From NCBI GenBank assembly GCA_002245135.1, contig NGBS01001175.1, positions 1 through 64,000 of the forward strand: 64,000 bases of DNA. Direction: 5' to 3'. How positions within the stretch are numbered: position 1 is the first letter of the stretch; every line of letters starts with the position of its first letter. The stretch comes from Proteromonas lacertae. Lineage: Eukaryota. Below are positions 1 to 43,866 of this stretch, piece after piece. The position numbers were made by a program, and so were the translations under genes. Under the pieces are notes generated by a model. The model was not told the DNA's origin. It saw nothing but the letters and a program-made list of their open reading frames with translations, and made no database searches.

Positions 1-1804
1 CATCATATACCCAATCTGTTTCAGAATCAGTATCATTATTATTATCTACTGATGTAACAGGTTCATTTGGAGCTTCTGAATCTACTGGTGTAACAGGTTC
101 AGTTGGGGCTTCTGAATCTACATCATCATTATTTTGAAATATTGATGAATAAGGTACTTGTCTTGTAGTACCATCTAATCTAAAATGATTAACTGTATCT
201 GGTGGAGCAGTCGGATGTGATGGTGGTGTTATTGGTGAATATACCGGTGATACCTCTCTTGGTATTTCATTATTATTACTATAATCACTTGAAACTAAAG
301 GTGGTGGTATTGGTAAATCATTTTCATCATAATTAAGTCTATATGTATCATCATCAATATCATCTTGTACTGATTGAGCTTGTTGTTGTTGTGGTGGTGG
401 TGGTGTGATGATGGTTGAGGTTGAGAGTGTTGTTGTTGTTGTGGAACAAGGTTGTTGTACCACATTATTTCTAAATTTACATTTACATTACCTCTATTAG
501 GATTTAACTTGATATTTCCATTATAATCTGCTGATAAAGCTTCTTCAACAGGTAATAATGGTGGAAAAGAACTGATATATTTTTCTTTTGTGCTAATCTA
601 TTCATATAAAACATAATTGCATCAGCATAATGATTTGTATCTCTTTGTCCTTCTTTTATATTATTTGATTCAAGTATTTTTTGAATTGTTGCTATGTAAT
701 TCATTCTATATCCATTAGAAGCAGATGATGGTAAACCCATTATATTTCTTTTGTCATAATCAGGAGGTTCAGGATATACATTACCATCTCTTAAACTAGG
801 TATTTTATACTTACTAATAAAAAATAATTCTGTAACACAATTATATATCAATACAGCTATAGAGAATGCTGTTCTTTCTTGTTGTGCAGTTATATACCAA
901 AATTTCGTTTTCATTAACTTATTAATAAATATTCTTATCTTATTAATTGTTACAGAACAATACACTTGAATCGTTTGTGAATGAATTGATCTATCTATTA
1001 AAGGTTGATTTTCATAAGGATCATCAGGTAAATCATCATCATCTTCCTCATCATCATTATTACTATCTTCATTATTATTTTGTTGTTGTTGTGAATGTGG
1101 TTGAATTGATTGATTCATAATCGTTATTATCATATATATCTTTATCATCTTCTTCATTAAAAGGTTGTGTATGATCTTTTGTTTCTTTTTGTATTTTTCT
1201 AATTCTTTTATTTTCTAATTTAACAACATTCAATCTTTCTTTAGGATGAAGCACAACAAATGGATTATTTCTTAATATATAATTAGAAGCAATACATAAT
1301 TCATCAATAGCTTTATTTAATCTATCAACAATTATTTTAACATCATTGTTTGTTTCATAGCTATATTGATATAATGATTTATTTCTTGAAAACGGTCCAT
1401 GTTGATATAACGATTTACACCAGTTAAATAACTTCATATGTACATCATATAAATTATAGATTCTATTAAACTCATGATCAGGCCATCCTACTGGTATAAG
1501 TCTCTATCAATTATTTCATCTAATCTAATCTTGGTTAACTTTTTTGCATTATCATATATAATATCTTCATAATCTTCATTACTAAGATGTTCATCATTGC
1601 CTACAATACTTATATTATCAGAATCAGTATTTTCTTCTGTTTCATCATCATCATCATCATTATTAGCATTAACAGAATTATTACTATTATTAATACCATT
1701 ATTACTAGAATTGCTACGACTGTTATTATTTGAGTTATCTACTGCTGTACCTTCATCATCATCAAATTTAATAAATCTCTACGTATTCTATTACGATTGT
1801 TCAT
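1..1804 (-). pseudogene. Large low-complexity (N/D/P/Q-rich) intronless ORF of the viral element, broken by several frameshifts and running off the window's left edge
   Basis: From ATG 1804 (MNNRNRIRRDLL...), single-base shifts join the frames into ORFs 1075-1437 and 504-1157 and a Pro/Asp-rich frame reaching position 1. No recognisable domain. Confidence 0.5.
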
Positions 1805-1856
1805 TATGTGAGAAAAAATCAATTAACTTTTTATTTGAATAATTCTTATACATATA

Positions 1857-2822
1857 ATGCAACCTAAGAGTGATACTAATAATTAGGTCATAGAAGAGCA
1901 ATTTTTTTATCATCAACTGATATTATTGAAAGAGAGTCAGATGTATATACAAAGTGTTTATCAACACCTGTTATAACTGAAGAATATCAGTATATTACGT
2001 TAAACATAGGCAAGAATATCAAACAATAACATATACACTATTCAAAATGATGTTAATGAAAAGTATGTTTTGATATAGAATATTTTCATGTAAATGATCC
2101 TATAAACCCTTAAATGATCCAAGCGTAATATTAAGCGGACCAAAATTAAATACATTAGAGATAAAGATACCACAAATCATTATAGTGGTGAAGAGTTTTT
2201 AAATTATTTAACAAAGAGTATGTTAACTGAATTAAAATTTACTACACTAGTACGTAAAGATATTTTACCTGTAAAAGAAAAAGATGAAGATGAAAGTTTT
2301 AATTATTTCTTACATCCTCAAGCTGGAGATAAGATATTTGACTGGTATGATAAGACTACGAATAGATTAAAATTATATTGTGCAATATATACTCACTTTG
2401 GTAATTATATACTAACAAAAATAAAAATGCGAATGCCTAACCTATTTGGTAGGTTATTAGGTAGTAATGTAATAGATGACGAATTAATTATATTAGATAG
2501 TAATCCATCGCATAGTTGGGGTACAAAAGAACAATACTATGATCATAAATTTTTATTAACACCATCACTTATATGGTGTAATGTAATACAAGTTAGATGT
2601 AGTTGGGTTAATAATGGTGAGAATTCAGCTGTTTTAGCAAACATACCTATAACTGATATATCAAACACAAATATAACATGGGTTAATCCACAAATAGATT
2701 GGTCAACTAAAAAGATGCAATTTCATGATTATCAAAAAATAAAGTTCAATCTATCAAATGAAGATGGTTATGCTATAGATTTAACTAATATATCATTTCA
2801 ATTTGAGATAATAGTTTATTAA
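1857..2822 (+). CDS. Minor capsid (penton-like, single jelly-roll) protein; the N-terminal part (1857-~2120) is frameshifted and ORF 2220-2822 is intact
   Basis: The C-terminus VIQVRCSWV...VLANIPI...IKFNLSNEDGYAIDL..ISFQFEI fits the Polinton/PLV penton pattern. Upstream frames reconstruct to ...RAIFLSSTD...LNIARISNNNIYTI...HYSGEEFLNYL, and the last part is in frame with 2220. Confidence 0.75.
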
Positions 2823-2884
2823 ATACTTATATAATTTTTAATTTTTGATTGTATTACCATTTTTCTTACCAAAATTAAATATAT

Positions 2885-4414
2885 ATGAATAATATAACAA
2901 CTGTACCACAATCTCAAATTCATAACAGTGTTGTACCAACATTAATACCTGATTATGTCTACATTCCTATTACACCTAACCAAACAAGAGATGTAGTTGT
3001 TTTAAGTCAAACATCATCAACTGATACAATAACTTTTGAATTATCACCAGATAGTTGTATGAATTTATCAAAATCTTATCTCGATTTTGATTTAATAATC
3101 GATCCTCATATAGTATCTGCAAATCCTGGTAATCCTGCTGCAGCTGGTAATGCATATACTATAGCAGGACGAGCAGCAGCAGCATTACCAGGTCCTGCAG
3201 TAGGTGAAACTCATGCTTTAAGATTAAGAAACACAATGAATTTTAATTCAATTAAAGTATACAACAAAACAGGAACAGTATTATGCGATTTAGATAACAG
3301 CTATAATGAATATAGAGACTTAATGCATGAATTATCTTATCATTGTCCAGATGATGTGAAAGGTATTAAATATTATGATGATACATTTGATGGATGTCAT
3401 GTAGCAAAAGATAAAGCAAATGGTCAATATGAAGTAATAGATCCATTATTATTACATTATACTCCTGGTAATAGAACAAGATCTAGATGTGGTCTTAAAG
3501 AAGAACATTATATGGAAGTGATAGATCCTGTAGGAGGTGCACCAATGGTTGATATAAGAATAAAAAGGCATTGCCGATTTCATTTTGCTGATTTATTTAA
3601 TACAATTTTATCATGCAAAAGTGATATTTATTTTGGTGAAACAATTTATATTTCAATAACATTTGCAGGAATTAATTCATGGATATTATATAAGCATAAA
3701 TTAATTGCACAAACAGCTGAGGCTGATCATGATGGAGAAAGCTATTATGATGAATGGACAAGATTTATTGAAATGAATATAATAAATCCAAAATTATATG
3801 TTGCATATAATAAAAGTCCACAATGTAATGCAAATACAATTAATTATGTTACTCATCATGGTATAGATTTTACTGATTTCAATATAGTTCAGTTAGTAAA
3901 AGATACTATTACAGGTGATCCTAATTTTAGCTATAATTTTACTATTAATAGTAGTTTAGGTCCTTATGTGAAATATATATTATATAGAGTTTATATGAAT
4001 AATGTTGCAACTAGAACACCTTTACCTTTTAAGTTTGCTGATGATAGAGTTAAATGGCAAATAAATGATACACCATGTACACCAGATTATTTAAATATAA
4101 CTAAATATGAAACATTTGAAAAATTATATCCTATAATTAGAGGAACATATTTTGAGAGATGTCATCAAGAAATTGATTGGTATGAAAGATTTTTTGATAT
4201 ATTAAATTTCGGAAGTGATTCATTAACTGATATAAAATCAAGAGCAGGTAGAGATTTAAGTAAAGATTTAAAAATTACTTTTGAAGCAAGAAATCATGTT
4301 TTTGATACAAATAATACTGCTCATCATGCAGTAATGACATATCATCACAAGTTCTACATTATAACAGGTAAGATGTTAATCATCTCAGCTAGAGGAGTAG
4401 AGAAGGTGATTTAA
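2885..4414 (+). CDS. Major capsid protein (double jelly-roll), Polinton-like virus type, 509 aa
   Basis: Motifs ITFELSPDSCMNLSKSYLDFDL, FNSIKVYNKTGTVLCDLDNSYN and FADLFNTILSCKSDIYFGETIYISITFA resemble PLV MCPs. Size and position between penton and ATPase fit; intronless. Confidence 0.8.
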   Translation: MNNITTVPQSQIHNSVVPTLIPDYVYIPITPNQTRDVVVLSQTSSTDTITFELSPDSCMNLSKSYLDFDLIIDPHIVSANPGNPAAAGNAYTIAGRAAAALPGPAVGETHALRLRNTMNFNSIKVYNKTGTVLCDLDNSYNEYRDLMHELSYHCPDDVKGIKYYDDTFDGCHVAKDKANGQYEVIDPLLLHYTPGNRTRSRCGLKEEHYMEVIDPVGGAPMVDIRIKRHCRFHFADLFNTILSCKSDIYFGETIYISITFAGINSWILYKHKLIAQTAEADHDGESYYDEWTRFIEMNIINPKLYVAYNKSPQCNANTINYVTHHGIDFTDFNIVQLVKDTITGDPNFSYNFTINSSLGPYVKYILYRVYMNNVATRTPLPFKFADDRVKWQINDTPCTPDYLNITKYETFEKLYPIIRGTYFERCHQEIDWYERFFDILNFGSDSLTDIKSRAGRDLSKDLKITFEARNHVFDTNNTAHHAVMTYHHKFYIITGKMLIISARGVEKVI

Positions 4415-4467
4415 AAATTATGATTTTAATTACAATTTAATATTTCTATTGCTATTATTACTTTATT

Positions 4468-5229
4468 ATGTTTAAGTTTGAAAAAATAAATAACATAAGG
4501 GTTGAACCTGTAGATGGTGGTGAAAAATTCAATCCTAAGAAGATAGTTGGTTATGATTATTTCAATGAGCCATTTTGTAACATTTTTATAGTTGCTCGTA
4601 AAAATAGTGGTAAGACTACTCTCATCTATAATATATTAAGACATGTTTTGGATCCAAGATATAAAGAAAAACAACATGTTCACTTCTTTGTGGGAACTAT
4701 CAAACAAGACAAGTTATATGATTCAATCAAAGAATTACTCGATTATCACGAAATTGATTATGATGAAAATGATTCACTCATTGATCCAGAGTCAGGTGAG
4801 AATGTGGTAGAGAGAATGATGAAAGAAATAAATGATGTTGATAAAGATAATTATTCTTATGCTGAGCATATTATGATCTTTGATGATCTTAGTTTAGAAT
4901 TAAAAACATCAACAATAATACCTGTACTGATGAAAGAAAATAGACATTTAAAATCAAAAATTATTATTAGTAGTCAATATATAACAGATATAGTACCAGC
5001 AGCTAGATCACAAGTTGATTATTGTCTTACATTTTATGGGTTAAGTAATAGAAATCTATTTGATTTATACAACTCATTAAATATATGGATCCCTGAGTAT
5101 GAAACATTTAAAAAATTATATCTTGCAGTCACTAAACCACAATTCAATTTTTTATATATTGATAATGTTAAAAAAGTCTTTAGAGCAAATTTTAATATTA
5201 TGATTGAAGATCATTCTGAAGTTTCTTAA
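4468..5229 (+). CDS. A32-like (FtsK/HerA superfamily) genome packaging ATPase, 253 aa
   Basis: Walker A ARKNSGKT, Walker B IMIFDD, NRH arginine motif, IIISSQ sensor and ARSQVDY segment typical of Polinton/NCLDV packaging ATPases. Confidence 0.9.
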   Translation: MFKFEKINNIRVEPVDGGEKFNPKKIVGYDYFNEPFCNIFIVARKNSGKTTLIYNILRHVLDPRYKEKQHVHFFVGTIKQDKLYDSIKELLDYHEIDYDENDSLIDPESGENVVERMMKEINDVDKDNYSYAEHIMIFDDLSLELKTSTIIPVLMKENRHLKSKIIISSQYITDIVPAARSQVDYCLTFYGLSNRNLFDLYNSLNIWIPEYETFKKLYLAVTKPQFNFLYIDNVKKVFRANFNIMIEDHSEVS

Positions 5230-5284
5230 ATAATATTTTTATAAATATATATATATATATATATATATTCATTAATAAAAAATA

Positions 5285-5956
5285 ATGTTTATTGGGGATA
5301 GAAATAAAGTTGATGTATTAGATGAAGATAAATTAATAGATGATATTACAAATAATATTACAGATAAATTAGATGAAGTGAAAGATCAAATTCTAACAGT
5401 ATGTAATACAATAAATAGTGTAGTAAATAATATACCTCGTACTATAATACCAAGACCTTATTGTTTGCATAAACAACATACATTTTATTCTATGAAAAGA
5501 AAATATTTAGTTAATGGATCACCTGTATGGGATACTAAAATTACTAAAATACCAATCAAAATAGAGATGTTTGAGCATTTTATGAAGATTAAATTATATG
5601 ATGGTTTTACATGTAATTATAGTGGATATATAGGTCATCAATTATATTTAGATGAAGATGATATCATCAAAGCTGAACCTGGTAGAGATGAATATTTACA
5701 ACGTTATTATAATATACTACTAGGATTATACTCTAATAAATTATTCCCCATTAGAGCAACAAATGTTAAAGATACTTATCATACATTAACTAATAGACCT
5801 TATTATGAGATAAAACATACATTAGTTAATAATAATAATAATCAACCTACATTATGTATTGTAGCTGATCAATACCCTAATCAAGAATATCTTGCAATAC
5901 CAAGACAGACATTCTTCACAGATTATATGAACACAGGTATTACAGAATTCTTTTAA
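5285..5956 (+). CDS. Viral protein, putative short fiber/spike (MFIGDRN family, copy 1), 223 aa
   Basis: Starts MFIGDRN like the next ORF. Short helical segment then a beta-rich domain sharing PxPY, IPIK, IK[L/I]Y, YLD and FP motifs with copy 2. Function inferred. Confidence 0.5.
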   Translation: MFIGDRNKVDVLDEDKLIDDITNNITDKLDEVKDQILTVCNTINSVVNNIPRTIIPRPYCLHKQHTFYSMKRKYLVNGSPVWDTKITKIPIKIEMFEHFMKIKLYDGFTCNYSGYIGHQLYLDEDDIIKAEPGRDEYLQRYYNILLGLYSNKLFPIRATNVKDTYHTLTNRPYYEIKHTLVNNNNNQPTLCIVADQYPNQEYLAIPRQTFFTDYMNTGITEFF

Positions 5957-6056
5957 TATAATAATAATAATAATAATAATAATACGTATATATAAATCAG
6001 TTTTAAATTTCTTGATGAATTTAATAGATTTTATATTTTTTATAATATATAAAATT

Positions 6057-6941
6057 ATGTTTATTGGTGATAGAAATAATAATACATTAGATATTGATAC
6101 AAAAGAGATTGCAAGTGAGATATCAAAAAATGTTAGTGTTAATATAGATATTCAAACATTATCAGATTCTATATCACAAAAGATTCAAATACCAACACCT
6201 AATATAACTGTAGATAGTAATAGTATATCAACCTATATAAATCAACCAATAAATGATAATACTGATACTAAAACAAAAGCAATAAAAGATGAAGTAGATC
6301 AAATTTATAATGAAGTTGATACAATAAGAAATATTGAAAGAGTTGTAGGTTGTAATGATTATAATACTGATGAAGAATTATATATGACTCAAGGTTTTGG
6401 TAAATATGATTCAATTTATAATCATCTTAAATTAATAAATATATATAACCCACAACCTTATAGTATTCAAATTACTACATGGACTGTAAAAGTTACTAGA
6501 ACAGATAATACATCATCAATTATAGATCAGATACCTATTAAAGTTACAATATTCATGAATTCTATAAGAATCAAAATTTATAATACACATCAATTAATTT
6601 ATAATGATAGATCAGATATAAAACAAATTGATATTTATCTAGATGATAATCATTTATTATCAAAATTATATAGTAATCAATCTGTATTAACTGATTTTTA
6701 TAATAAGCTTATTGAAAAATACCCTAATGATGGTAGTAATTGTATAGTATTCCCATTACAAGTTTATAATAATTCTCAATACCCATCAGAATACATACCA
6801 ACACATTTTATATTAATAAATGATAATAAACCTAATCTACATTTACAAAGTGATAGTATTGAAGGTTATCAAAAACAATGTATATTACCTGGTGTTATTG
6901 AAACTATGTATATTGATTACAGTATTATCAATCCTTTATAA
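6057..6941 (+). CDS. Viral protein, putative long fiber/spike (MFIGDRN family, copy 2), 294 aa
   Basis: Start placed at ATG 6057 (MFIGDRN) by identity with copy 1. Longer N-terminal stalk and a paralogous C-terminal domain. Confidence 0.5.
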   Translation: MFIGDRNNNTLDIDTKEIASEISKNVSVNIDIQTLSDSISQKIQIPTPNITVDSNSISTYINQPINDNTDTKTKAIKDEVDQIYNEVDTIRNIERVVGCNDYNTDEELYMTQGFGKYDSIYNHLKLINIYNPQPYSIQITTWTVKVTRTDNTSSIIDQIPIKVTIFMNSIRIKIYNTHQLIYNDRSDIKQIDIYLDDNHLLSKLYSNQSVLTDFYNKLIEKYPNDGSNCIVFPLQVYNNSQYPSEYIPTHFILINDNKPNLHLQSDSIEGYQKQCILPGVIETMYIDYSIINPL

Positions 6942-7303
6942 TATACTATTTATTACATCATCAATATCTTTTAGTATAATTTTAGTATATTTTTAGTGAA
7001 TTATAAACACCTTTTATTAATTTTAGTGAAATCCCACCATGTATTATAAAATATTTATCCCATCATCCTTTATATCCCTACCAGTAAAACCAGTAGAACT
7101 TAGAATAACATAGCTTGTAGCGACCTGTTCTACCCCTGCCGTGGCTACTGTAGAGAAAGACTATAGATCAATATTTTACTATTAATCCATCAGTAATTAA
7201 TATTTCAAATTTTTTAATTTGTTTCCTCAATATTTTAAACATTTTGGATATTTTGGGTATAGGAACACTAAATATCCTGTTTATTCATATCCTCTATAAT
7301 ATA

Positions 7304-9305
7304 TAATACCAGATGTAAAACTACCTAAAGTTGTAGATGTGTTTAATAAAATAACAACTGTAAAACATTTTAATGTTCCAACAAATATGGAACGAGTAGG
7401 AGGTATTGTATAATGCAAAATTATTAAAACTGGACTTTTTGCAGGAAAAGCTGATATATTATCAGTTAAACATAATAGAACCGAAGATACTGTTATTGCA
7501 AGAATTAAATATATGTTTGATGTAGATGAAAAGCCTGCTATAATAGAACTTAATACCACTCCAGAAGCAACAACATCTGCTGAAGAATCTATATCTACTA
7601 CTACTAGTGAAACTGAATCCACATCTACAATTCTAACAGAAACAACAACAGCAAATAGACTTCGTGCTGTTTTAAGAGAAGCAGAAACATCATCAACAGA
7701 TACAACAGCATCAACAGAAACTACTGCAACTGAGAGTACAGCTACTACAACAGGATCAACTGATACAACAGCTTCCACTGAAACAACAGAAACTGCGTCA
7801 GCAGCAACTACAGTTGAAGAAACGACAACACCAACTTCAACTCCAGAACCAACAACAACTGCTCCTCCTCCACCACCTCCAACTGTTGAAAGATTTAATG
7901 TACCAGATTTGGAATATAGTGCAATACAACTAAGAAACGATTTAACAACATACATTCCTCAATATGTTCATGTAAACCATAATGTTACAATACCAGCTGA
8001 TGGTAACTACTCTGCAAGTACTTGGGGAGATATGAAGGAAGTACAGTGAGATTAGTGGATGAAGCATCTACTCCAGAACCTACTTTCAAGTATGAAGATA
8101 AGAATGTTACATTTTATTGTAACGAAATAGGTGAAAAAGGAAAGCCTGTAGTTAAACCATATGAAACATATGTCTATACTAAAGGTAATGATATATATTT
8201 TGTATTTAAAGATCAAAAAAACTTACCAAATGATGATGCTAATTGCTATTTAGCTGCTAATCCAAATGGGGACAAATTAGAAATATCAAAATTTGATATT
8301 GCCACAACATTAAAATGTAATAGTAACAATGTATGTAGAGGTTTCACTATTCCAGATCCTAAAGATCCAGAGTTAATTACTGTAAGTGATAATGAAGATG
8401 GAAGTTATACACTTCGAGCAACTGCTAAGACAATTGGTGAAAAAGCAATGCAAGCAATGTTATCTGCATATACTCAAAATGATAATAAATATGTGTTTAT
8501 ACCTATTTCACAAGATGATGATTATTATGGAAATATATTAATGAAGTTAACAGAAGGTGTGAAATTATCAGTTACTATATTCAATGATGGTAAAATTATT
8601 AATACTGTTCCTGCTGTAGTTAGTTCAGTTATTGGTGAAATATTGAATTTACCACATTATATTGTTAATGGAACAGATAATATAACTGCAACTGCTGAAC
8701 CAACAACTACAACAGCAAAACCTAGTAGGCGTATTTTAGTTGAATCATTTGAATCAAATACAATAAATTTACCAACTGTTTATACTTCAGTTCCATTTAC
8801 TCCTTTAGTAGGTTATGAAGACAAAGTAGGTTATACAACAGCTTCAATATCAATTGATTTAACTGAAAGTGATTCAAGAAAAACAATGGAATGTAGTGGT
8901 CAAGGATTATGTAATAGAGAAACAGGTCAATGTGAATGTTATGCTGGTTATGATGGAGATGCTTGTCAAAGATTGAGCTGTCCTAATGACTGTAGTAATC
9001 ATGGTCGATGTGTGAAAGTATATGAATCATTAGAAAATGCTAATGTGAATTTATATAAAGGATTTGGAAATGATGAATATATTTATAGTTGTATTTGTGA
9101 TGCTGGTCATCGTGGAAGTGATTGTAGTTTATTAGAATGTCCATCATCTGTAGATCCAATGAAAGCAACAAATGATAAAGATGATAAATCATCTGAACAA
9201 AGAGATTGTAGTGGTCGAGGTAATTGTGATTATTCAAGTGGTTTATGTAGTTGTTTTGATGGATTTTATGGTGAAGCTTGTCAAAATGCTAATACTTATG
9301 CTTAA
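7304..9305 (+). pseudogene. 5'-truncated mastigoneme-like (Ocm1/Sig1-type) EGF-repeat, Thr-rich surface protein gene
   Basis: C-terminal MECSGQGLCNRETGQCECYAGYDGDACQRLSCPNDCSNHGRC...RDCSGRGNCDYSSGLCSCF. Paralogous to 51096-53586 but lacks the signal peptide and first EGF; in-frame TAA at 7411-7413 and a frameshift near 8040. Confidence 0.75.
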
Positions 9306-9404
9306 ACACTTATAATGAATGAAATGAAATGAATCAAGATTTCTTTATTATATATTATATTATATTATATCTAAAATTGTTTGTATGAGAGTTATTATTC
9401 TTAA

Positions 9405-11039
9405 TTAAGAATCATCCTTTGAAATACTACTTCTAAATTTCTTTTTTATTACTCTATATGCTTTTGTACTATAATCATATTCAAAATAGTATTTATTCAA
9501 TATTTTCACTCCATTTTCTTCACTTTCTTCTTGTTTTAATAAAAATCTTGAATATCTCTCAATTGCTATAAATAAATAATATATTTTATATAATATATTA
9601 AATACGATTACTATTATTGAAAATACTCGATATTTCTTTAGAATAATCTTTAGTCAATGGTTGACCTACATAATTAGATATTGCTTGATATAGAGTAGAA
9701 TAACCAACTTCATTTCGTTTATACTTCTTATATGCTTTTTTACTCATTATTGATACTTGTTTCTCTATTGTATTGGTTAAATCTCCATTTGTTACTGGTT
9801 GTAATTGATTTATTACTGATGTTGAAAAACTACGATGAGATTCTTTATTACTTTTAAAACTTCTAATTGATGGAGTTCGATGTGGTGTTAAATATGAATT
9901 ATTATTATTATTATTATTATTATTATTTTGTAAAGACATCATTGATTTTGTTTCTCTTTTTATTGTATTACCAATTAATGGACTCGATGAAGGAATTGCT
10001 TGTGGTTGTTGTAATTGTGATGGTTGTTGTTGTTGGATTTGTTGTTGGAATTGTTGTTGTTGTTTTGTAAATTCATCTTGTCGATTCTCTAATAATGGTT
10101 TATATTTGGTTTCTAATTCTTTATCCACATTTATTACTCTTTCTGATTTACAGATTTCTTTATCTTTTTTGGTATTTACATCAGCTTCTAATCCTTTCAC
10201 TTCTATTTTTTGATGTTTTACTATTTGAATAAAATAGAAATAATTATAAACATATATCCTCAAATGAGAAAGTATTATTATTATTATCACTTATTATCAC
10301 TTATTATATTCAATATATATAACCAAAATAATATGTGTATATTATATTGAATATAATAAAAGTAAAAATAAATATCAAAATAATTAAATACAAAAAATAG
10401 CCTCTTTTCATCGGATTTATATAAATATATTTATTTATACATATTCTAACTGGATATGGATGTGTATCATCTATAACATTATAATCACAGGGAGTAGTAA
10501 CAGGAGTTATTTCATTTGAATTAATTATCTTATTCAATGATAAATTGTGAATATATAAAGGAGAAATATCAATTGATGGAGATAGTTTAGGGAGGTTCAC
10601 TTTTTACTAAGATATTAACAAATTACATGAATTATACAGTTAGGTTTAAATTCATCATTCAACATTGTTGAGAATATTGAGTCTTCATATTCTTTACATT
10701 TTAGATTAGGTTACTTCATCAATATCATAATATGATGATACTGTGGAACTTAGAAATTGTAACCAACCACTATCTTCTTCAGAAAATGCTCTAGATATAA
10801 AATCGATTATTTGGGGTTTACATTCCTCAATTTTGGCTTTCGTTGAAGAAAATATACTCAAAATTACATTTATCTATATACAATATCCACATAATACATC
10901 ATACTTTTTGAAGTAAGTTAAACTTGTGAAAATAATTCAATAAATCATCTAAATCCTGCTTGGATGGAGATGGTTGTACTTTCCATTCATTATTGTATTT
11001 CTTTGAAAGCGGTATGAACTTATTTGGATCAAAATTCAT
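9405..11039 (-). CDS. NELFA: NELF-A (WHSC2)-like protein, spliced; left copy with two apparent +1 indels
   Basis: Mirror copy of 49374-50996; extra bases near 10590 and 10708 relative to the right copy. Confidence 0.55.
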
Positions 11040-11145
11040 CTCAAGCCTTCAAAAATAGTTTGAATCATCCAAAAATAGTTTTGATTAACCCATTCTTTTA
11101 AAAACAAATTTAAATCAGTATTACATTTATATAAACTATAATCTA

Positions 11146-12240
11146 TTAATTTATTACTTTATCTAACACTATCACACTAAATTCAGCAATCATTTGTTTC
11201 AACAAACTTTCATTATTGTTTAATTCATGATTTTCATATTTCATTATCAATTTCCCCTTTCCATTCGCATTATAATTACTAACTCCAAATAATTTACAGA
11301 AATAATCAATCATCTTACCCACACTGTATTTCTTATCACAATATATTGAATATATTTTATTTTCATATTTTATATTATAATACAATCGATTATTTGGAGG
11401 AATTTTTGAATCTCCTTTAGCTATTCTTTTAAATCTATTTATATAGTATTATATTCAAATATCATATACTTCTGTGATTCTATCATTAATCTATTCTTCT
11501 CATTTCTTAAATATCCACTCAATGTTCCTATTCTTATTTTCACTATTCCTTTATTATCAATATATTTAGATATTTCTTCATCTAATTCTATTTTGGTATT
11601 ATTTATTAGTATTATTTTATCATCAAGTGATAGGTTATGTTTCATACAAAGTGATGATAATATTTCATTAAATTTGGTTGAGAAATTATTTATTATTAAT
11701 TTGTCTGTACAAATACCACTACTTCTAATCATTATTGTATAGAATATAATTAATACATTATTTCTATTTCATTTAAAGTCTTTTCTTTTGAATATTCTTT
11801 ATTTTTATTATCTATAAATTGATTTGACATTGCACATCTATCACAATTATGATCTAATGGATTTCTATAATACATTACTTCATAGTTCAAATTGTTATAT
11901 CAAATACCTGTGAAGTTTACAAAAACTATGATTACATTCACAACAAATGAATTTAGTTAATTCCTTGTTTTTACAACCATTCATTTCACAACTGTATGTT
12001 GATAATTCATCTACTACTTCACTAGTTTCTAAAATTCTTTTCTTATATCTATTATTTTATCGGATTTATTTTATACTCTACACAGTTATGCTTCTCATAT
12101 GACATATGATCTTTACAATACTTCTGGTGACAAAAATCACATTCAAAAGGAAGAAAATCTAAATCAATCTAAATATTAACAACACCTTTCTGATGACATT
12201 CACTAAAACTACAATAACAACCTACTTCGGTTAATTCCAT
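11146..12240 (-). CDS. ZFAND1: AN1-type zinc finger protein ZFAND1/Cuz1-like, spliced (left copy)
   Basis: MELTEVGCYCSFSECHQKDFLPFECDFCHQK.CKDH AN1 finger, a second finger, and a C-terminal AKGDSKIPPNNRLY...SVGKMID ubiquitin-like domain. Confidence 0.85.
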
Positions 12241-12379
12241 TATTTATTTCAAATACAAAAATGAAATGTATTATTCTCTGTATTTTATTGTATTTTGGTT
12301 TATTTCTTTAAATAAATAACATACAAACACATAACAAACAAAAAATCATTAAATTAAACAACAACAACAAAAATAAATA

Positions 12380-13339
12380 TTATATCTCATCAAATACAAA
12401 GCGACCAAAATCACCTTTTCGAAATCTCTCAATAAATCTTCTACTAGCAACACATTCATCACATTTTTCATTCTTACTAATCATCTTCAATACATAATCT
12501 ATATTATCAAGTTCTTCTTCACTTCCACTCAAATGTAACACTTTTCTATATTTATAATTCTTCAACTTATTCAGTTTAAACAATATAAAATCACATAATA
12601 CATCTTCATCCACTATTTTATCAGGAATACATCCAGCTAAACATAAATTCAATCCTACTTCATTATTCATATTATTATTAATTTGTAACTTTGGAATCAT
12701 TATACCTGGACTATCATAGATATATAAATCAGGATTATTATTGATTTTCAATGGATATATATTTCGAGTTAAACCAGGAGTTGCACCAACTTTTGGCACC
12801 TTTTACTATTTAATATATATATAATAAATACATCCTTTAAAATCATTCGAATTCTTTCTTATACAATTTATTATTGAAGATTTACCTACATTTGTTAAAC
12901 CAACTATTAGAAATATTGAACCCACTGTTTTGAATTTAGATGGACATGTCTTAATCATTGTTGGAATTAGTTTATTTATATTTATCTTTTGTTTTACTGA
13001 TATAAACAAACTAGATATATTCTGTTTGGAATAATATTCATTGATTTTAGGCCATTTCGATGAATCAGATAAATCACATTTATTAAATAATATCAATCGT
13101 GGTTTATTGGGAAACAGGGAATCAAAATTATGATTAGAAGTACTCAGTGGAAACTATATTCATTTTCATCTATGAATTATACTCTAGCATCACGAACTTC
13201 CATTAACATATCCACTCCTTTCACTTTCTCAGATAAAAGTCTTAAAGCTTTAGCCATATGACCAGGATACCTATAATTCATTATAACATCACATAATATA
13301 CCAGTTTATTGTGTTATTGTAAAGAAATTCATTTCTCAT
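12380..13339 (-). CDS. MTG1: Mitochondrial ribosome assembly GTPase MTG1/RbgA family, spliced (left copy)
   Basis: WYPGHMAKA, EVRDAR, NKCDL, GLTNVGKSS, GATPGLTR and DSPG motifs in circularly permuted order. Confidence 0.9.
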
Positions 13340-13387
13340 GCTTCTAAAATCAACTTTATTCAATCAAGCCTAATCAAGTTTTTGAAA

Positions 13388-16300
13388 ATGTTTTGTTTGA
13401 AATCTTTCATAGATGAAGTATTATTATCTATATTACCACCTAATTCTAATGTATTTTACTTTATTTATTTTTAATAGATAAAAGAAAGAATAGAAAAGAG
13501 TGAAAATGAGGTAGTTTTAGTTGTTGAACATAAGAATGAGATTAAAATGATAAAAATATTAGATGTTAATGAGATAAAAGAGAAGAAGATATTGAAATTC
13601 TTAGAAAATACCTCCTTATTGTTAGATTGTTGTGCTTCCTTAATATATCCTTTTCAAGTGTTTTTAAACAGTGACTGTGTTATAATATCAAGAAATTATT
13701 TCTCTAGAGACTTAAAAGAGATGATTCAAAGTAAATCTTTGTCTAATGTTGAAATATGTAATGTGATATGTTCTTTATGTGATATTATAATGATCTTAAG
13801 TGAATATGACTTAATGATAGGTAATTTAAAGAGTAGTAATGTAATATATGAAGAAAATGGCAATATAAAGTTATGTGATTTAATCCTAAATGCATTAAGA
13901 AAAGAAGATGAAATGAGAATATATGATATATGCTTCAAAAGTCCAGAAGAGATGAATGGATTAGAATATGATGAAAGAAGTGTAATTTGGTCAATTGGCT
14001 GTATATTATATGAGATGATTTGTAAGAAATTACCATTTAATGAAGATAATAATATGAATAAAACGAAAGAGAATATTGTGAGATGTAAATACAGTTTAGA
14101 TGTAGAATGTGATGATCAAGATGAAAGAAATGATATTCAGAATGTTGAAAGTGAAGAATGAAGATAGAATGAGATTGAAAGAGTTGATAAAAGAAATGAC
14201 AAAAATGAGTGAATTATTGAAAGATGATGAGAATGATTTTATGATATTCGAAGAAAGGAAGAAGTTTTTGTATAAAAATGATAAAAATAGTATTTTACTT
14301 CCAATAATCTATCCATCAGAATACTATCTTGAAAGATTGTTTGATAGAATCTTATAATTATAAACCTAACAAAAGAATATTGTCTATACTATTGATGATG
14401 AAATTATACAAACAAGATAAATCAATTATAGATAGACTGAAGTTTCATATTCATCATCAATGTAAAAATGAAAAGATGTATTGTTTAGATAGAATGATAT
14501 TTATTATTAGTACTGATTGTGAAGATAAAGGAAAAATTGTAATTGATTCAAAACACATTTGTTTCTGTAAAGAAGGGATGGATTATTTCTTCAATATACT
14601 GAAACAGATCAATCCAACAAAACTTCCAATTTGGTATAATATTAGTTATAATTTTGTCTTGTTTAAATAGTTTTTTATATTCCAATAAAATTTTAATCAA
14701 TTATCAAATCTTCAAGAAATTTATATACATTCATGTAATGTAGATTTTAATTTCATAGAATCATTTAGTTAAATCAATTCCATTCATGAAATTAAAATAT
14801 ATAAATCTTTCATGTATATCTTGATCTATTTAAATATATTATCTTGAAATAGACACACCAATTGGTTCAAAAGGATTTAGATTAATTCTTCCATATTTGC
14901 ATTTGTTAATCAACAAAAATAATGAATTGAATCTATGTGGAATGAATTTAAATGATGAATCAATGGTATTATTATCAGAAGAATTATTTAGATATGCAAA
15001 TATAAAAAAAATAGATATTATGCAAAACAAAAATATTCATTCTGTTGGATTAAAAGCTTTATTCTCCAAGTTTCCTATTTCAAAAATAGTATTTGATGTA
15101 AATGGATGTAAAGAATTATTGGTTGATAAAGATGTTCCAGAATTAATCAAATATATTAAAAGTAATAATAATGAATTAAATCTGAGTAATATGGAAATGA
15201 ATGATTATTTTTTTGATATCATTGATTTTTTTAAAATCAGAAGAATTAAGAAAAATAGGTAGATTAAATTTGTGTAGTATTATTTGTTTTTCTTTTTTAT
15301 TATGTAGATAATAAACTTAAGTCTATGAGTGTACAAATACTGATTAACAATTATACTTCATTTTATAAGTTTAAAGAACTTCAATTATGTGGGAATGATA
15401 TAGGAGATGAAGGAATGAAAATATTATCTCCTTATTTACATTTACTAAGAAGTAATGATTGTAAATTGAATTGTTCAAGTATAATAATTGTTGTTATTGT
15501 ATTGAATAGAAATGGGTTTATCTTCAGTTGGAATAAAACATTTGATGAATTATGTAGAAGAAGATCATTATATTGAAATGTTAGAGATTAACAGTATATA
15601 TGATTTATATTATTTTAATAGACAATCCAATAGGAAATAGTGGATTTAAGTCCTTGCTAAACAATTTAAAAATATTGATGGATTATGATAAAATAAATAA
15701 TGATTAATATCTCAATTGATGATGAAAGTATAATTCTGTTGGCAAGTAATCTTTAATCAATTGAAAATTGTGAAACTATAAATCTAAATGGAAACAGTGT
15801 AAGTATGAAAGGATTAGAATCAATATGTTCAAAATCATTAGAAAATGAAAATTATCCATTCATAGAAATGAAATGTTCATCGTGGACAAATGAAGAATTG
15901 GAGTATTATTTAGACTATTGTGTAAAGAAGAGAAGAAAAGATGAATATGATTTTTCCAGTATAGAATGTGATTATTCTATATAATAGATTTTGGTTTGAA
16001 TGATTCTCATATTTCAATAATTAAACAGATAAATTATAGATGGATTGATTTATCGAATAACAAAATTAGTTCTAAAGGATTGAAAGAATTAACTGATTTA
16101 TTACCAAATTCTTCAAAATATATTACTATTCATAATAATGAGATTGGAGATGAAGGAATAGAAATAACTTGTAAATATTTAAATAAGTTTACAAGGCGAA
16201 ATTATAAAAATCACCCATATTTATTGAATTTATCAAGTATTTTATATACATAATGTGAATTTATTATTTGAATAGATGTTGGTATAAGTGAAAAAGGATT

Positions 16301-16577
16301 AAAAGTGTTAATAGAGAGATTAAAAGATTATAAACCAATTAGAAATATTGATATATCAGGAAATGAATTGAATGAAAATGAATTAAGATTGATGAAAGAA
16401 AACAGAAGGATTTTTGAAGATTTGAATGAATTATGAATAACATTAAAAGAGAATATTGATAAATCCGAATTAATATCATTTTTACAAACATTTCCATCTG
16501 TAAGAAGAATAAAAGTGAATGGATTTTCAGAAAAAGAAAAGAATGATTTATCAAAAGAATTCTTTAATGTTGAATAA
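13388..16577 (+). pseudogene. Kinase-like (pseudokinase) plus RNI-type LRR protein, disrupted (left copy)
   Basis: Kinase subdomains IGNLKSSNV (no catalytic Asp), SPEE and IWSIGCILYE, followed by LRRs (NDIGDEGMKIL, NEIGDEGIEI). TAA at 15754 (CAA in the right copy), a 23-nt deletion near 14335 and further frameshifts. Confidence 0.75.
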
Positions 16578-16747
16578 TTAATTTTATTTTTATTATATTT
16601 CATTGTCAATTCTATTCATATGATTGTGATTTTGGAAATTTTCATTTATCCCAAAACTATCCCCAAATTCAATTTTTCATTAACCCAAATCCATTCAAAT
16701 TAAATAGACTTTCCCGCTTTTTAAAAAGCCAAAAATTCTTTTTGCTC

Positions 16748-19700
16748 ATGCTCACTCGTTTTGAGACTACTAGCAATAGAGTGAAGGGTTTGAGTTTCCA
16801 CCCACATCGACCTTGGTTATTAGCCAGTTTACACACAGGAAGTATCCAATTATGGGATTATCAAATGAAAGCTTTAATTGATGTATTTGATGAACATACA
16901 GCTCCAGTCCGTGGTGTTTGTTTTCATCAAAGTCAGCCTTTATTTGTGTCAGGAAGTGATGATTTCAAAATCAAAGTATGGAATTACAAACAACGAAAAT
17001 GTCTATTCACACTTCTTGGTCATTGTGATTATGTGCGAAGTGTAAAGTTTCATCCCGAATATCCTTGGATTTTGAGTAGTTCTGATGATCAAACGATAAG
17101 AATATGGAATTGGCAAAGTAGAGAATGTATATCCGTCCTTACTGGACATAACCACTATGTAATGTATGCTGAATTCCATCCAACAAAGGATTTAGTCTTA
17201 TCAACCTCCTTAGATACAACGATAAGAGTATGGGATGTATCAGCGTTAAGAAAGAAGAAAGTAAATGGAACGCCAGGTGAAGAACAACAAGCAGCTGGTT
17301 TGGGTCGTTTAAATTCCGAATTATTTGGAGTAGTAAAATTTGTTCTTGAAGGTCATGATCGATGTGTAAATTGGGCAAGTTTCCATCCAACTTTAAATTT
17401 AATAGTTTCAGGATCTGATGATAGACAAGTGAAGATATGGCGATATAATGATTCAAAGGCATGGGAAGTTGACACTTTAAGAGGACATACTGGAAATGTA
17501 AGTTGTGTATTATTCCATCCAACAAAGAATCTTATATTTAGTGACAGTGAAGATCATTCTATTCGTATATGGGATGCAACAAAGAGAATTTGTATTCAGA
17601 AGTTTAGTCGACCTCATGATAGATATTGGGTAATGGCAATGCATCCAAGTCAAGATTTAATAGCAGCAGGTCATGATAATGGTTTAATAATATTCAAATT
17701 GAATAGAGAAAGACCAGCTTATTATACCAATGGAAATGAGTTATATTATGTGAAAGATAAATATATTCGATTATATGATTATACTTCCACGAAAGATATT
17801 CCAATATCAAGTATATCTAATAATTCGAATATCCAACCAAAACAATTGATATATAATTCAATGAATCCAAGTGAAAGTAATATAATATTATTTTCCACAG
17901 CTGATGGTGGAACATATGAAATATATCGAACAGGTAAAGGTGAAAATACAAATGGAAGTGAGCCAATAAAAGGTAATGGATTAAGTGCCTTATTTACAGC
18001 TAGAAATCGTATAGCTGTATTAGAAAAAGATCGAAAGATAAGTATAAGAAGTCTTGACAATCAATTAACTAAACCAGTAACACCTCCATCAGGTAATTGG
18101 AGTGAAATATTTGCTGGTGGAATAATTGGTCGAATATTATTAAGAAGTGATGATCGAATAGTATTATTTGATACAACCAGTCGAAAACAATTAGGAAGTG
18201 CAATAGTAAATGGTGTAAAATATGTTCAATGGAATGATAATAATGAATATGTTGCATTAATGAGTAAAGATACAGTATGGATATGTAATAAAGATTTAGA
18301 AATAATCTCTACTTCGAATGAGCCAATGAGTGTAAAAGGTGGTAGTTGGGATAAAAGAGGTGCATTTATATATAGTACATTAAGTCATATAAAATATATA
18401 ATACCAAGTGGAGATAGTGGTGTAATAAGAACAATCGATTTTCCATGTTATGTGACTAAAATTGAAAATAAACATGTATATGTATTAGATAGAGATTGTA
18501 AACCTCGAAGATTAGCGATTGATCCAACTGAATATGAGTTTAAAATAGCATTAGAAAGTCGAAATATTCAAGAAGTATTAAGAATAATAAAGAGTGGTAA
18601 ATTATGTGGTGAAGCAATAATTGAATATTTACATAAGAAAGGATATCCTGAAGTTGCATTAAACTTTGTAAGTGATACATCCTCTCGATTTGATTTAGCG
18701 TTGAAATGTGGTAATATTGAAATAGCAGCTGAATGTGCAATTAGTTTAAATAAAGATGAATATTATGAGAAATTAGCTGATGTAGCTTTATCAAGAGGTA
18801 AAATATCAGTAGCTGAAATGGCTTATCAAAAGACAAAATCATTTGAGAAATTATCATATTTGTATTTATTAACAGGTAATAATGATAAATTACAGAAAAT
18901 GTATAAGATAGCAGAAATGAGACAAAATGTAATGTCCAAATATCTAAATGCATTATTATTAGGAAATGCAGAAGAAAGAGTAAAAATATTAGAAGATGCT
19001 GGTGAGAATAGTTTAGCTTATTTAACTGCTTTAACATACAATTTAAATGATAAATTAGAGAATATTCAAGCTGCTTTAGATACAAATAATATTCCAATAC
19101 CTGTAAAGAGTGAAAATAGTGAAGAATTATATCCACCCAAAACTGTAGAATTAGTAAATGATTGGGTAATTGGAGATAAAAGAAGTAATTATTTTGAATC
19201 TGCTGGAATGCCTCAAGGAAATAATAATAATAATAATGAAGATGATGATGATGATGAAGAAGAAGAAGGAGAAGAAGAAGAAGAAAACAATAAAAATGAT
19301 GAAGATGATTGGAATAAGAATGATGATAATAAAGGAAATGAAGCCAATGAATGGGGTGATGATCTTGAAATACCTGCTGATGAATTACCTGATACAATTG
19401 TAAATACATCAAATAAAAATGAAAAAGATGAATTTAGTATGGAAGAAAGTGGAAATATCGTAAGTGGAACAAGATTACCATCTGCGAAAGATTATTGGAT
19501 TGATAGTTCATCTTTAGCTGCAATTCATATAGCTGGTGGTTCAATAGAAAGTGGAATGAGATTATTAAATCGTCAAATTGGTGTAATTAACTTTGATCCA
19601 TTAAAAGAAGTATTTCGAAGTGTTTATTATGGCAGTGAAATATTTTGTCCTGGTTATTCAATAAGTCCACCAATTGGATATGAATTAATACATGATGGAA

Positions 19701-20459
19701 GTAAAGTCAATTCAATGAAGAAAACAGTACCTCCAAGTACAATAAAGTTCAGTCATTTAGTTGAGAGATTAAAAGAAGGATATAAATATTTCCAATTGGG
19801 TAAATTTACTGAAAGTATGAATACATTTTTAAAGATCTTGACGAGTTTACCATTATTAATAGTAAGTCATAAAAGTGAAAGTGATGAAGTAAAAGAATTA
19901 GTAAGTGTAAGCCGTGATTATATAACTGCTTGTCGATTAGAATTATATCGTCGAAGTATTCAATCAAATGATGGAGTTAGAGGATTAGAATTGAGTTGTT
20001 ATATGACTCATTGTAATTTACAAGCTAATCATTTGTTATTAGTATTGAATTTAGCAATGACAAGTGCTTATAAATTGAAGAATTATATAACTTCAGCTGA
20101 TTTTGCAAGAAGAATATTAGAAATCAATGAAATAAACAAACAAAATAATGCTCAATTAAAAGATAAAGTATATATATAAATATATATATATTATTATTAT
20201 TATTATATAATAGACACTTAAAGTATTACAAGCATCTGAGAAACAAGGAAGAAATGAAAATGAATTGAATTATAATAGTCAAAATCAATGGGTAATAAAC
20301 TGTGAGAAATTTTTACCATTAAATAAAAGTGATGAAATAATGAAATGTCCATATTGTGGATCTAGTTATGATGTGAGTTATAAAGGTAAGTTATGTTTGA
20401 CTTGTAATTTGAGTGAAGTTGGTTTACAGACACTTGGTTTAGTTTGTAGTTTAAATTAA
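16748..20459 (+). CDS. COPA: Coatomer subunit alpha (left copy), one intron at 20168-20213
   Basis: MLTRFETTSNRVKGLSFHP start, WD40 repeats, alpha-solenoid, and C-terminal CPYCGS...CLTCNLSEVG zinc site. Confidence 0.97.
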
Positions 20460-43695: not shown

Positions 43696-43866
43696 GAGCA
43701 AAAAGAATTTTTGGCTTTTTAAAAAGCGGGAAAGTCTATTTAATTTGAATGGATTTGGGTTAATGAAAAATTGAATTTGGGGATAGTTTTGGGATAAATG
43801 AAAATTTCCAAATTCACAATCATATGAATAGAATTGACAATGAAAAATAATAAAAAATATAATTAA

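Follow-up and report, generated by a model that had tools for sequence, protein, structure and literature searches.

Two neighbouring genes on the + strand, at 5285..5956 and 6057..6941 of the 64-kb stretch of DNA analysed here (the window), encode proteins that share the N-terminus MFIGDRN and have related C-terminal domains. We lean, a little to the probable side of even, towards reading these anciently diverged paralogs as two virion attachment fibres of an integrated polinton-like virus module, each anchored by an MFIG(D/E)R peptide and each ending in a knob-like head. Two alternative attachment fibres appear likely because the genes stand within a capsid module and because the predicted head resembles those of reovirus sigma1 and of adenovirus knobs.

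Two paralogous genes with a common N-terminal peptide

Both open reading frames are intact. The short fibre paralog (5285..5956, +) encodes 223 aa, and the long fibre paralog (6057..6941, +) encodes 294 aa counted from its ATG. The long frame reaches upstream to a TTG at 6012 in the ORF listing; its true start is likely the ATG at 6057, because all 12 database homologs begin at MFIG. The common peptide occupies 5285..5305 in the short gene and 6057..6077 in the long gene (both +), the latter located by six-frame scan and alignment. A six-frame search of the whole 64 kb locates MFIGDR at two positions, 5285 and 6057, and nowhere else; IPIK[IV] is likewise confined to 5549 and 6531.

BLASTP aligns residues 56-214 of the short protein with residues 132-288 of the long one (38.5 bits, E 4e-8, 44/170 identical, 26%), a similarity well above chance, and judged by this alignment the two are paralogs. 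The first-pass annotation had drawn attention to the MFIGDRN start of both frames, to stalks of about 55 versus 130 aa ahead of a PxPY motif, and to five pairs of scattered motifs. All three observations hold: the PxPY motif is placed at residue 56 in the short protein and residue 132 in the long one because BLASTP aligns these positions, and the pairs PRPY/PQPY, IPIKIEMF/IPIKVTIF, YLDED/YLDDN, YYNILL/FYNKLI and NQPTL/NKPNL all appear in the pairwise alignment. Two other accounts of the identical start were considered and set aside. Recent gene conversion does not fit genes that are otherwise 26% identical and whose distant homologs keep the same start, and an adenovirus-type protease site in MFIGD does not match the consensus for such sites.

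To place the pair within a family we relied on a full HMMER scan, by which alone relatives were detected; word-indexed searches with each paralog returned 69 and 357 candidates, none at E<=0.01. The profile search, run against 1.84 billion proteins, recovered five relatives (E 6.6e-32 to 2.5e-14), and the family homologs sit on contigs of 961-2133 bp. A search for further MFIGDRN-type starts had been suggested in the first-pass annotation, and every one of the 12 database proteins (the five relatives and their cluster members) does begin MFIG[D/E]R. With the two window proteins included, the start is found in 14/14 family members, which bears out the proposal of a conserved N-terminal peptide. 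In an alignment of seven representatives M1, F2, I3, G4 and R6 are invariant, and the first six residues hold 5 of the 14 invariant columns, in sequences that overall are 24-36% identical to the short protein. Where homologs do vary within the start peptide the substitutions are conservative (D/E at position 5, N/T at position 7). Such invariance at the N-terminus is what a docking peptide would be expected to show.

Beyond these relatives the family stands apart. Neither Pfam nor PHROG assigned a known family to any of the 10 members scanned, neither IMG/VR nor the JGI metagenomes yielded relatives when scanned with the paralog pair, and a search of PDB sequences with the fibre profile gave no meaningful match. 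Homology to a known non-structural family had been named beforehand as something that would speak against fibres, and 0/10 members map to one in Pfam or PHROG. The literature searched contains no mention of the MFIG[D/E]R motif. As a side observation, an Atlas look-up with the long paralog pointed to viral capsid-type clusters, but with scores no higher than 0.79 and below the threshold; we did not count these leads as evidence.

The family tree divides into two head subfamilies with support of 100/99. Subfamily A contains the short window protein and P0009-P0011, subfamily B contains the long window protein with P0008/P0012, and the window thus carries one head type of each. Because this split groups each window protein with relatives, both head types appear to have been kept in several lineages. 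Subfamily A spans the 223-aa window protein and relatives of 243 to 295 aa, and since its other members are longer the short stalk is best read as a lineage-specific shortening. Short versus long, the contrast first drawn between the two genes, does not survive as a conserved distinction; what the tree indicates to be conserved is a pair of old head types, which stalk length does not separate.

Predicted stalks and heads

We modelled the short protein as a monomer with AlphaFold2 from a 7-sequence alignment (pLDDT 70.5). In this model residues 1-12, which include the proposed capsid anchor, are disordered (pLDDT <50), residues 14-49 form a helix (5324..5431, +), and a beta-rich head follows, with block pLDDT 74-91 over residues 61-150. 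The stalk helix carries a heptad pattern, a 28-residue window from residue 23 being reached by only 1/500 shuffles. Similar patterns occur directly before the head in P0010 (1/500), P0011 (8/500) and P0012 (15/500), such that four of the seven representatives have a heptad with Ile/Val/Leu at the a/d positions before the head (<=15/500 shuffles); the pattern is weak in two further members (134/500 and 196/500).

The long stalk, delimited by alignment to residues 8-131 (6078..6449, +), is composed differently. It contains a proline-containing segment with the family motif PINxNT, prolines within IPTPN and NQPIN, a weak heptad stretch at residues 70-97 and, before the head, a segment of ~35 aa that the alignment places only in subfamily B. 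Because of these prolines, and because the best heptad stretch of the long protein was reached by 74/500 shuffles, the long stalk is probably not one continuous helix. The original description of both stalks as helical is upheld by the model of the short protein (helix 14-49, heptad 1/500) and is probably inexact for the long one. A homotrimer prediction with three copies of the short protein scored 0.01 against a mark of 0.32, in a run where the alignment was unused and the chain fold uncertain, and it counts neither for nor against a trimer.

The head domains correspond to residues 56-223 of the short paralog (5450..5953, +), assigned a predicted sigma1/fibre-knob-like beta fold from structure searches of the model, and to residues 132-294 of the long paralog (6450..6938, +), assigned from its BLASTP match to short residues 56-214. 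A structure scan of 48,161 PDB chains, independent of Foldseek, placed viral fibre heads in all of its top 21 rows, namely reovirus sigma1/sigmaC, adenovirus knobs, virophage Zav_19 and noumeavirus NMV_189, with matches covering residues 57-217. Over that span the model aligned with reovirus sigma1 at Z 7.4 and an rmsd of 4.0 A for 133 residues. In a second structure comparison 50/50 listed entries were fibre heads. Foldseek against the PDB likewise returned reovirus sigma1/sigmaC for 9/9 matches at E<=0.001, with Zav_19 (probability 0.93) and adenovirus fibre heads in lower rows, and against BFVD it gave matches of the same kinds (reovirus, adenovirus and virophage fibre heads). These matches are modest (best Z 7.4, TM 0.31-0.46, 4-13% identity), and a Z below 8 can, as the tool itself warns, reflect a common arrangement. 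With a best Z of 7.4 on a model of pLDDT 70.5, the short head resembles the sigma1/fibre-knob-type fold class. The fibre-type head postulated in the first-pass annotation gains support here, since in two independent structure searches the best-ranked matches of the predicted short head are viral fibre heads only.

The capsid module and competing explanations

The genes directly upstream of the fibre paralogs, on the same strand and with short spacers between, encode a major capsid protein (MCP) and a packaging ATPase. Together these two constitute a capsid module, and it supports the viral setting presumed for the paralogs. The MCP gene (2885..4414, +) encodes 509 aa, and although its AlphaFold2 model is of low confidence (pLDDT 50.9), structure searches of it were consistent. 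Foldseek against BFVD found 70 matches at E<=0.001 (best 2.2e-10), among them adintovirus, MELD virus, TVS1, mavirus, virophage and NCLDV MCPs. VIA-align gave Z 12.6-8.2 over 264-357 residues for 50/50 listed entries, which include ASFV p72, faustovirus, vaccinia D13, mavirus, Sputnik, PBCV-1, hexons and PRD1. Atlas feature scores reached 0.97-0.98 to MCP-bearing clusters. At the level of sequence, seven homologs were found, all Logan-only; neither the MCP nor its profile had a meaningful match among PDB sequences, its alignment found no relatives in IMG/VR or the JGI metagenomes, and Pfam returned chance-level singletons only for the 8 MCP family members scanned. As modelled, at pLDDT 50.9 and with Z rising to 12.6 for matches of 311-357 residues, the product is a double-jelly-roll (DJR) MCP.

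The next gene (4468..5229, +, 253 aa) was assigned to the A32/FtsK-HerA type of genome-packaging ATPase from three sequence matches that are weak and concordant: Pfam Pox_A32 at E 4.8e-4 (20.1 bits, below the 22.8 cut-off), phrog_2666 terminase large subunit at E 9.7e-6, and the STIV2 B204 packaging NTPase at E 0.007. On these matches its product is an A32/B204-like packaging ATPase. Directly upstream of the capsid gene lies an intact 200-aa ORF (2220..2822, +) without a Pfam, PHROG or PDB sequence match, which by size and position is a candidate minor capsid (penton) protein. Around the module, Rfam had no match in bases 1-10000, no tRNAs were found in 1-12000, and a look-up of sequencing runs containing 2200-7000 listed none, of RNA or otherwise.

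We propose that each fibre protein would assemble as a parallel trimer through the heptad-patterned helix just before its head, and that its flexible N-terminal peptide would insert into a socket of the capsid. The vertex (penton) is our choice for this socket: the putative anchor is a short disordered linear motif and not a folded three-fold domain, and the tail peptide of adenovirus fibres provides the analogy. Since the same plug is present on both proteins, the docking sites would be either shared between them or contested. Particles would then present heads of two kinds, each at its own distance from the shell, and might have two receptor specificities, directed at the host cell surface or at the host plus a helper giant virus. 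A broader version of this proposal is possible and is offered tentatively, namely that MFIG(D/E)R is the universal six-residue plug of an undescribed polinton-like virus lineage, by which any head bearing it would dock in one and the same capsid socket. Each virus would then have two old head types on freely reset stalk lengths, a minimal and modular host-range cassette for two receptors, of which one might be on the cell and the other on a helper giant virus.

A different siting has a minor chance of being correct: the proteins could sit on the three-fold MCP capsomers, not at the vertices, as receptor-binding or decoration proteins. Such siting has been shown for NMV_189 of noumeavirus, and it is the proposed one for Zav_19 of Zamilon (Sputnik V8); NMV_189 (Z 4.6) and Zav_19 (Z 5.4-5.5) are both among the head matches, and bioRxiv 10.1101/2023.01.23.525297 proposes it for three virophage fibres of different length. 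Moreover, a trimer on a trimeric capsomer would involve no symmetry mismatch, and the penton here is a candidate by position. However, Zav_19 is anchored by a folded 52-residue beta-prism and NMV_189 by a concave surface of its head, whereas what is conserved here is a stretch of 6-7 residues within a disordered N-terminus, which is like tail-peptide docking. Reovirus and adenovirus heads also outscore Zav_19.

We consider it improbable that the module is a captured relic whose two proteins have ceased to be parts of a virion and are drifting ORFs or host-domesticated binding proteins. The virus-like genes recognised number only five, and no polymerase, integrase, protease or primase-helicase was detected among the window ORFs scanned with Pfam. 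No flanking (terminal) repeats were found in bases 1-9000. In GC3 the five genes (0.07-0.18) are equal to host genes (0.08-0.22), and a 12.8-kb host segmental duplication begins about 1.2 kb downstream. Against decay, none of the five ORFs is interrupted, in DNA whose G+C content of about 26% makes stops easy to acquire, and intact relatives of both paralog types with the same invariant start exist in other assemblies. The short gene list itself has two readings, either a relic module or an element that extends past the left edge (base 1) of the window.

Viral yet non-structural roles, for example as secreted or intracellular lectin-like or TNF/C1q-like ligands that resemble knobs, strike us as quite improbable. 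A Z below 8 would fit a generic beta-sandwich arrangement, but no TNF, C1q or lectin chain ranked above the fibre heads among the 48,161 chains; in addition, the place of the genes right after the MCP and ATPase fits a morphogenetic module, and inspection of the N-termini by eye revealed no hydrophobic signal-like start. Least probable of all is that the identical start reflects a nucleic-acid signal over the first codons (a transcription start or translation element of late genes) and not a docking peptide, for although the two genes agree at 22/23 nt counted from the ATG, with one synonymous difference (GGG vs GGT), and 79% identity extends over the 48 nt around the start, the other three module genes start differently, homolog changes are conservative in the protein with M, F, I, G and R invariant at 24-36% identity elsewhere, and extreme AT-biased codon use alone (GC3 0.07-0.11) explains the nucleotide identity.

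Comparison with known attachment proteins

The family described here is an orphan in sequence, but its members are of a known kind. The principle is not new either, for its logic is already seen in the Zamilon virophage and in adenoviruses with two fibres. The attachment proteins of polinton-like viruses (PLVs) and virophages are mostly sequence orphans and poorly understood. If the attachment-fibre reading is true, the window offers a small and tractable pair (223 and 294 aa) with one short anchor peptide and two homologous, diverged heads. It would provide a handle on how fibres dock to a double-jelly-roll capsid and on the recognition of protist hosts or helper viruses, and would add a further case of a fibre-head fold common to unrelated non-enveloped viruses.

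Reovirus sigma1 is built on a plan of N-terminal anchor, alpha-helical coiled coil and compact head, which the predicted layout of the short protein, with its putative anchor, resembles. In sigma1 a body of triple beta-spiral also separates the coiled coil from the head. Orthoreovirus sigma1 and avian reovirus sigmaC are the best head matches (Z 7.4-6.5, rmsd about 4 A, 121-133 residues), at 4-13% identity to the short head. They belong, however, to dsRNA viruses with a different capsid, and the triple beta-spiral body of sigma1 is not evident in the short protein.

Two-fibre adenoviruses have a DJR capsid, and their fibres share a penton-docking N-terminal tail while differing in shaft length and knob; examples are HAdV-40/41/52, with long and short fibres, and fowl adenovirus, with fiber-1 and fiber-2. 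The penton-binding tail motif of adenovirus fibres is of the FNPVYPY type. No FNPVYPY-like motif was seen after the N-terminus of the family sequences when these were read by eye, and MFIG[DE]R is found instead. Adenovirus knobs match the short head at Z 6.5-4.5, among them those of the short fibres of HAdV-41 and HAdV-52. The adenovirus shaft consists of beta-spiral repeats, whereas the head-adjacent stalk here is predicted to be helical. Pfam detected no adenovirus fibre or knob domain at E<=0.1 in 10/10 members, and in the two window proteins none appeared even at E<=1. The adenovirus analogy put forward in the first-pass annotation applies to architecture and does not extend to sequence membership in the adenovirus fibre family. 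The two-fibre arrangement is in part described in PMC12220804.

The same paper (PMC12220804) describes polinton-like virus fibres as bacteriophage-like, with Peptidase_S74 chaperone, collagen, laminin_G3 and BppL_N architectures, and reports such fibre genes, presumed to be penton-binding, in endogenous PLVs of protists. None of these PLV fibre Pfam domains (Peptidase_S74, collagen, laminin_G3, BppL_N) is present in the proteins here, which in contrast to bacteriophage-like fibres are small (223-296 aa) and have a predicted sigma1/knob-type head. The noumeavirus NMV_189 capsomer cap (PDB 7qrr) provides a fibre-head fold on a DJR capsid and matches at Z 4.6, but it has no tail or stalk.

The closest parallel is the Zamilon virophage fibre set Zav_19 / Zav_20 / Zav_1. 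According to bioRxiv 10.1101/2023.01.23.525297, these three proteins have a common N-terminal domain, unequal stalks and different beta-sandwich heads. They differ from the pair here in several respects. The Zamilon anchor is described as a folded, intertwined beta-prism of 52 residues, as against 6-7 invariant residues within a disordered tail here, and the ~52-residue N-terminal beta-prism of Zav_19 / Sputnik V8 is absent from the model of the short protein (disordered 1-12, helix 14-49). The Zamilon heads are reported there to lack mutual sequence similarity, whereas the two heads here are homologous (E 4e-8), and the long Zamilon stalks are given as collagen repeats, of which the paralogs have none. 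Sequence similarity to Zav_19 was not found (6% identity; profile search of PDB sequences). There is nevertheless a likeness in plan: like the proteins in the window, Zav_19 / Zav_20 / Zav_1 of Zamilon vitis (Sputnik V8 orthologue; PDB 7qrj) belong to a small DJR-capsid virus and combine a shared N-terminus with unequal connectors, a 3-helix bundle in the case of Zav_19, and C-terminal heads, and the short head aligns with Zav_19 at Z 5.4-5.5 and an rmsd of 3.5 A over 108 residues.

A paralogous pair with a common start

Two adjacent plus-strand ORFs, of 223 aa (5285-5956; the short paralog) and 294 aa (6057-6941; the long paralog), both begin MFIGDRN, as the first-pass annotation had recorded, and a six-frame scan of the whole 64 kb found MFIGDR in two places only, at these two ORF starts. 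The first 23 nt of the two genes differ at a single, synonymous base. Paralogy is borne out by BLASTP (38.5 bits, E 4e-8, 44/170 identical), which aligns residues 56-214 of the short protein with residues 132-288 of the long one; these offsets agree with the ~55 and ~130 residues previously counted ahead of a PxPY motif, and all of the motif pairs listed in that annotation recur in the pairwise alignment. Mechanical ORF calling puts the start of the long paralog at TTG 6012; ATG 6057 appears the credible start, since every database relative begins at MFIG.

Word-indexed homolog searches with each paralog returned nothing. A profile of the two, run against 1.84 billion representatives, retrieved five proteins (E 6.6e-32 to 2.5e-14), and their clusters add seven more, all Logan-only and on contigs of 961-2133 bp. 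All 12 of these relatives start with MFIG[D/E]R, a motif that occurs in no paper of the literature searched. In an alignment of seven representatives, overall identity to the short paralog is 24-36%, and M1, F2, I3, G4 and R6 account for five of just 14 invariant columns. Judged by Pfam and PHROG, in which none of the 10 members scanned matched a family beyond chance-level singletons, the paralogs and their relatives are a sequence-orphan family.

A maximum-likelihood tree of 14 proteins (the 12 relatives and the two window paralogs) falls into two groups with support 100/99: group A contains the short paralog and the relatives P0009, P0010 and P0011/17, and group B the long paralog with the P0008 and P0012 clusters. 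It follows from this split that the duplication predates the element, with one gene of each type in the window. The stalks of the window pair do differ in length, as had been proposed, but stalk length does not define the two types, since group A proteins measure 223, 243, 281-284 and 295 aa; the 223-aa form is, on this comparison, a shortened derivative. Group B carries an extra ~35-aa segment ahead of the head. At the same place, between stalk and head, P0009, P0010 and P0011/P0017 have a run of at least five Gly/Ser residues, a likely hinge; the short paralog has no such run, and its helix is joined straight to the head.

Structure of head and stalk

The AlphaFold2 model of the short paralog, built from a seven-sequence alignment (pLDDT 70.5, pTM 0.60), has disordered residues 1-12, one helix over residues 14-49, and a beta-rich head (roughly residues 60-211) that includes one helix (135-149) and has block pLDDT of 74-91 across residues 61-150. 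In a Foldseek search of the PDB, 9/9 matches at E<=0.001 were reovirus sigma1 or avian reovirus sigmaC, with adenovirus fibre heads ranking lower, as did the Zamilon virophage fibre protein Zav_19 (probability 0.93); TM-scores were low (query 0.31-0.35, target up to 0.43). Similarly, BFVD returned reovirus sigma1/sigmaC and aviadenovirus fibres. With VIA-align against the PDB, fibre heads were 50/50 among the matches listed, the best at Z 7.4 (rmsd 4.0 A, 133 residues). Absolute structure scores are modest; by the tool's own caution, a Z <8 can mean a common arrangement. In a scan of 48,161 representative chains that did not rely on Foldseek, rows 1-21 were solely viral fibre heads, including sigma1, sigmaC, many adenovirus knobs (the HAdV-52 short fibre too), Zav_19 and the noumeavirus capsomer cap protein NMV_189, while single-helix matches to the short stalk start at Z 4.6. 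The assignment rests on fibre heads alone occupying the top of the list and on alignments that extend across the whole head. By homology only, the long head would have the same fold.

For the stalk, the heptad a/d pattern in the 28 residues directly ahead of the head was compared with 500 shuffles. It was reached by 1/500 shuffles for the short paralog and likewise 1/500 for P0010, by 8/500 for P0011, 15/500 for P0012, 74/500 for the long paralog, 134/500 for P0008 and 196/500 for P0009. Trimeric coiled coils are favoured when beta-branched residues occupy both the a and the d positions, a rule by which the stalk may be a trimer. In the long stalks, the N-terminal half contains prolines and a conserved PINxNT motif and is therefore unlikely to be helical.

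The capsid module and surrounding DNA

The plus strand carries, between ~2.2 and 6.9 kb, a head-to-tail series of five intact ORFs with short AT-rich spacers: a 200-aa ORF (2220-2822), the double-jelly-roll major capsid protein (MCP; 509 aa, 2885-4414), an ATPase (253 aa, 4468-5229) and the two paralogs. The MCP has no sequence match in Pfam, PHROG or the PDB and only seven homologs, all from Logan assemblies, and the AlphaFold2 model built for it is of poor quality (pLDDT 50.9). Sequence comparison by itself reveals little about viral context, yet the MCP fold searches are consistent despite the model. Foldseek gave 70 BFVD matches at E<=0.001 (top E 2.2e-10), and the best 50 of these comprise 26 named capsid, coat or hexon, three BTB or F-box, and others unnamed or uncharacterised. 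Against the PDB, double-jelly-roll proteins were 50/50 among the VIA-align matches listed (Z 12.6-8.2 across 264-357 residues, the full model span), including ASFV p72, faustovirus, vaccinia D13, mavirus, Sputnik, PBCV-1, hexons and PRD1. Atlas feature scores (0.97-0.98) agree with these searches. The ATPase matched Pox_A32 in Pfam (E 4.8e-4, under the cut-off), phrog_2666 in PHROG (E 9.7e-6) and STIV2 B204 (E 0.007), three weak but concordant matches that suggest a capsid-packaging ATPase. The 200-aa ORF had no match in Pfam, PHROG or PDB sequence searches; its position alone makes it a penton candidate.

As eukaryotic DNA the window is rich in A+T (G+C 22-34% in 2-kb steps), and it carries ordinary cellular genes for coatomer alpha, protein kinases, dynein regulatory complex subunit 7, Hsp70 and RGS. 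Codon composition is equal (GC3 0.07-0.18 in module genes vs 0.08-0.22 in host genes). In the window ORFs scanned, neither a polymerase nor an integrase nor a protease turned up, so the module is a fragment or else the right-hand end of an element continuing past the left window edge. On the minus strand, ORFs 504-1157, 1075-1503 and 1488-1778 overlap in different frames; they contain acidic and poly-Q/N tracts, match no family, and may be a single gene with introns or frameshifts, which could be host or viral.

Several other features were observed. MCP residues ~75-111 (window ~3100-3220) form an Ala/Gly/Pro-rich insertion, by eye missing or much shorter in the 416-495-aa homologs and disordered in the model; it could form a loop at the surface. 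Across the 64 kb, the 13-mer CCAAAATTAAATA has just two exact occurrences, at 2140-2152 and 2869-2881 (+), which precede the 200-aa ORF by 68 nt and the MCP gene by 3 nt (three matches vs 0.98 expected with one mismatch allowed); it may be a promoter element common to these two capsid genes. The start of an EGF-repeat ORF (8022-9305, +) is overlapped by a mucin-like ORF rich in Thr, Ser and Glu (7513-8049, +), and the two are probably parts of a single gene for a surface protein, split by an intron or frameshift; on the opposite strand, ORF 7281-7955 resembles a shadow of the repeats. Within ORF 8022-9305, ~1.2 kb past the long paralog, begins a 12.8-kb inverted segmental duplication (8109-20881 vs 39569-52304, 96.7% identity) holding two copies of the EGF-repeat protein, a kinase and coatomer alpha; the MFIGDR scan revealed no second copy of the viral module in the window. 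A 1314-aa ORF (30510-34454, +) of many diverged internal repeats, with self-matches of 68-80% identity throughout, has no Pfam family.

A dual-fibre model and known fibre systems

The first-pass reading of the pair as adenovirus-like dual fibres agrees with the predicted head fold, the capsid context and the invariant start, its short/long contrast failing as the defining distinction; partly tested, it is the best available explanation. Both paralogs would be three-part virion fibres, in which the invariant N-terminal peptide serves as plug, the stalk can vary in length and a knob-type head binds the receptor. Docking at a vertex is favoured over anchoring by a folded three-fold domain, since what is conserved is a short linear peptide within a disordered tail; the adenovirus fibre docks on the penton by just such a tail peptide. 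Since the plug is identical, the two fibres would share sites, and particles would display two head types.

Some adenoviruses carry long and short fibres, and the short fibre knobs of HAdV-41 and HAdV-52 match the short head (Z 4.5-4.7), whereas none of the 10 members scanned against Pfam belonged to the adenovirus fibre family. The closest published parallel is Zamilon virophage. Three of its proteins have an N-terminal domain in common; they have connectors of unequal length, made of a 3-helix bundle or of 14 or 38 collagen triplets, bear differing beta-sandwich heads, and are proposed to make capsid fibres of different length (bioRxiv 10.1101/2023.01.23.525297). Zav_19, as described there, is anchored by a folded three-fold domain, in contrast to the short peptide in a disordered tail found here, and a profile search of PDB sequences did not place the paralogs in its sequence family. 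Endogenous polinton-like viruses of protists are reported to have fibre genes of other architectures, including fibre pairs per penton (PMC12220804). The paralog family thus adds a sequence orphan to a known kind of fibre system, one whose conserved anchor is notably minimal.
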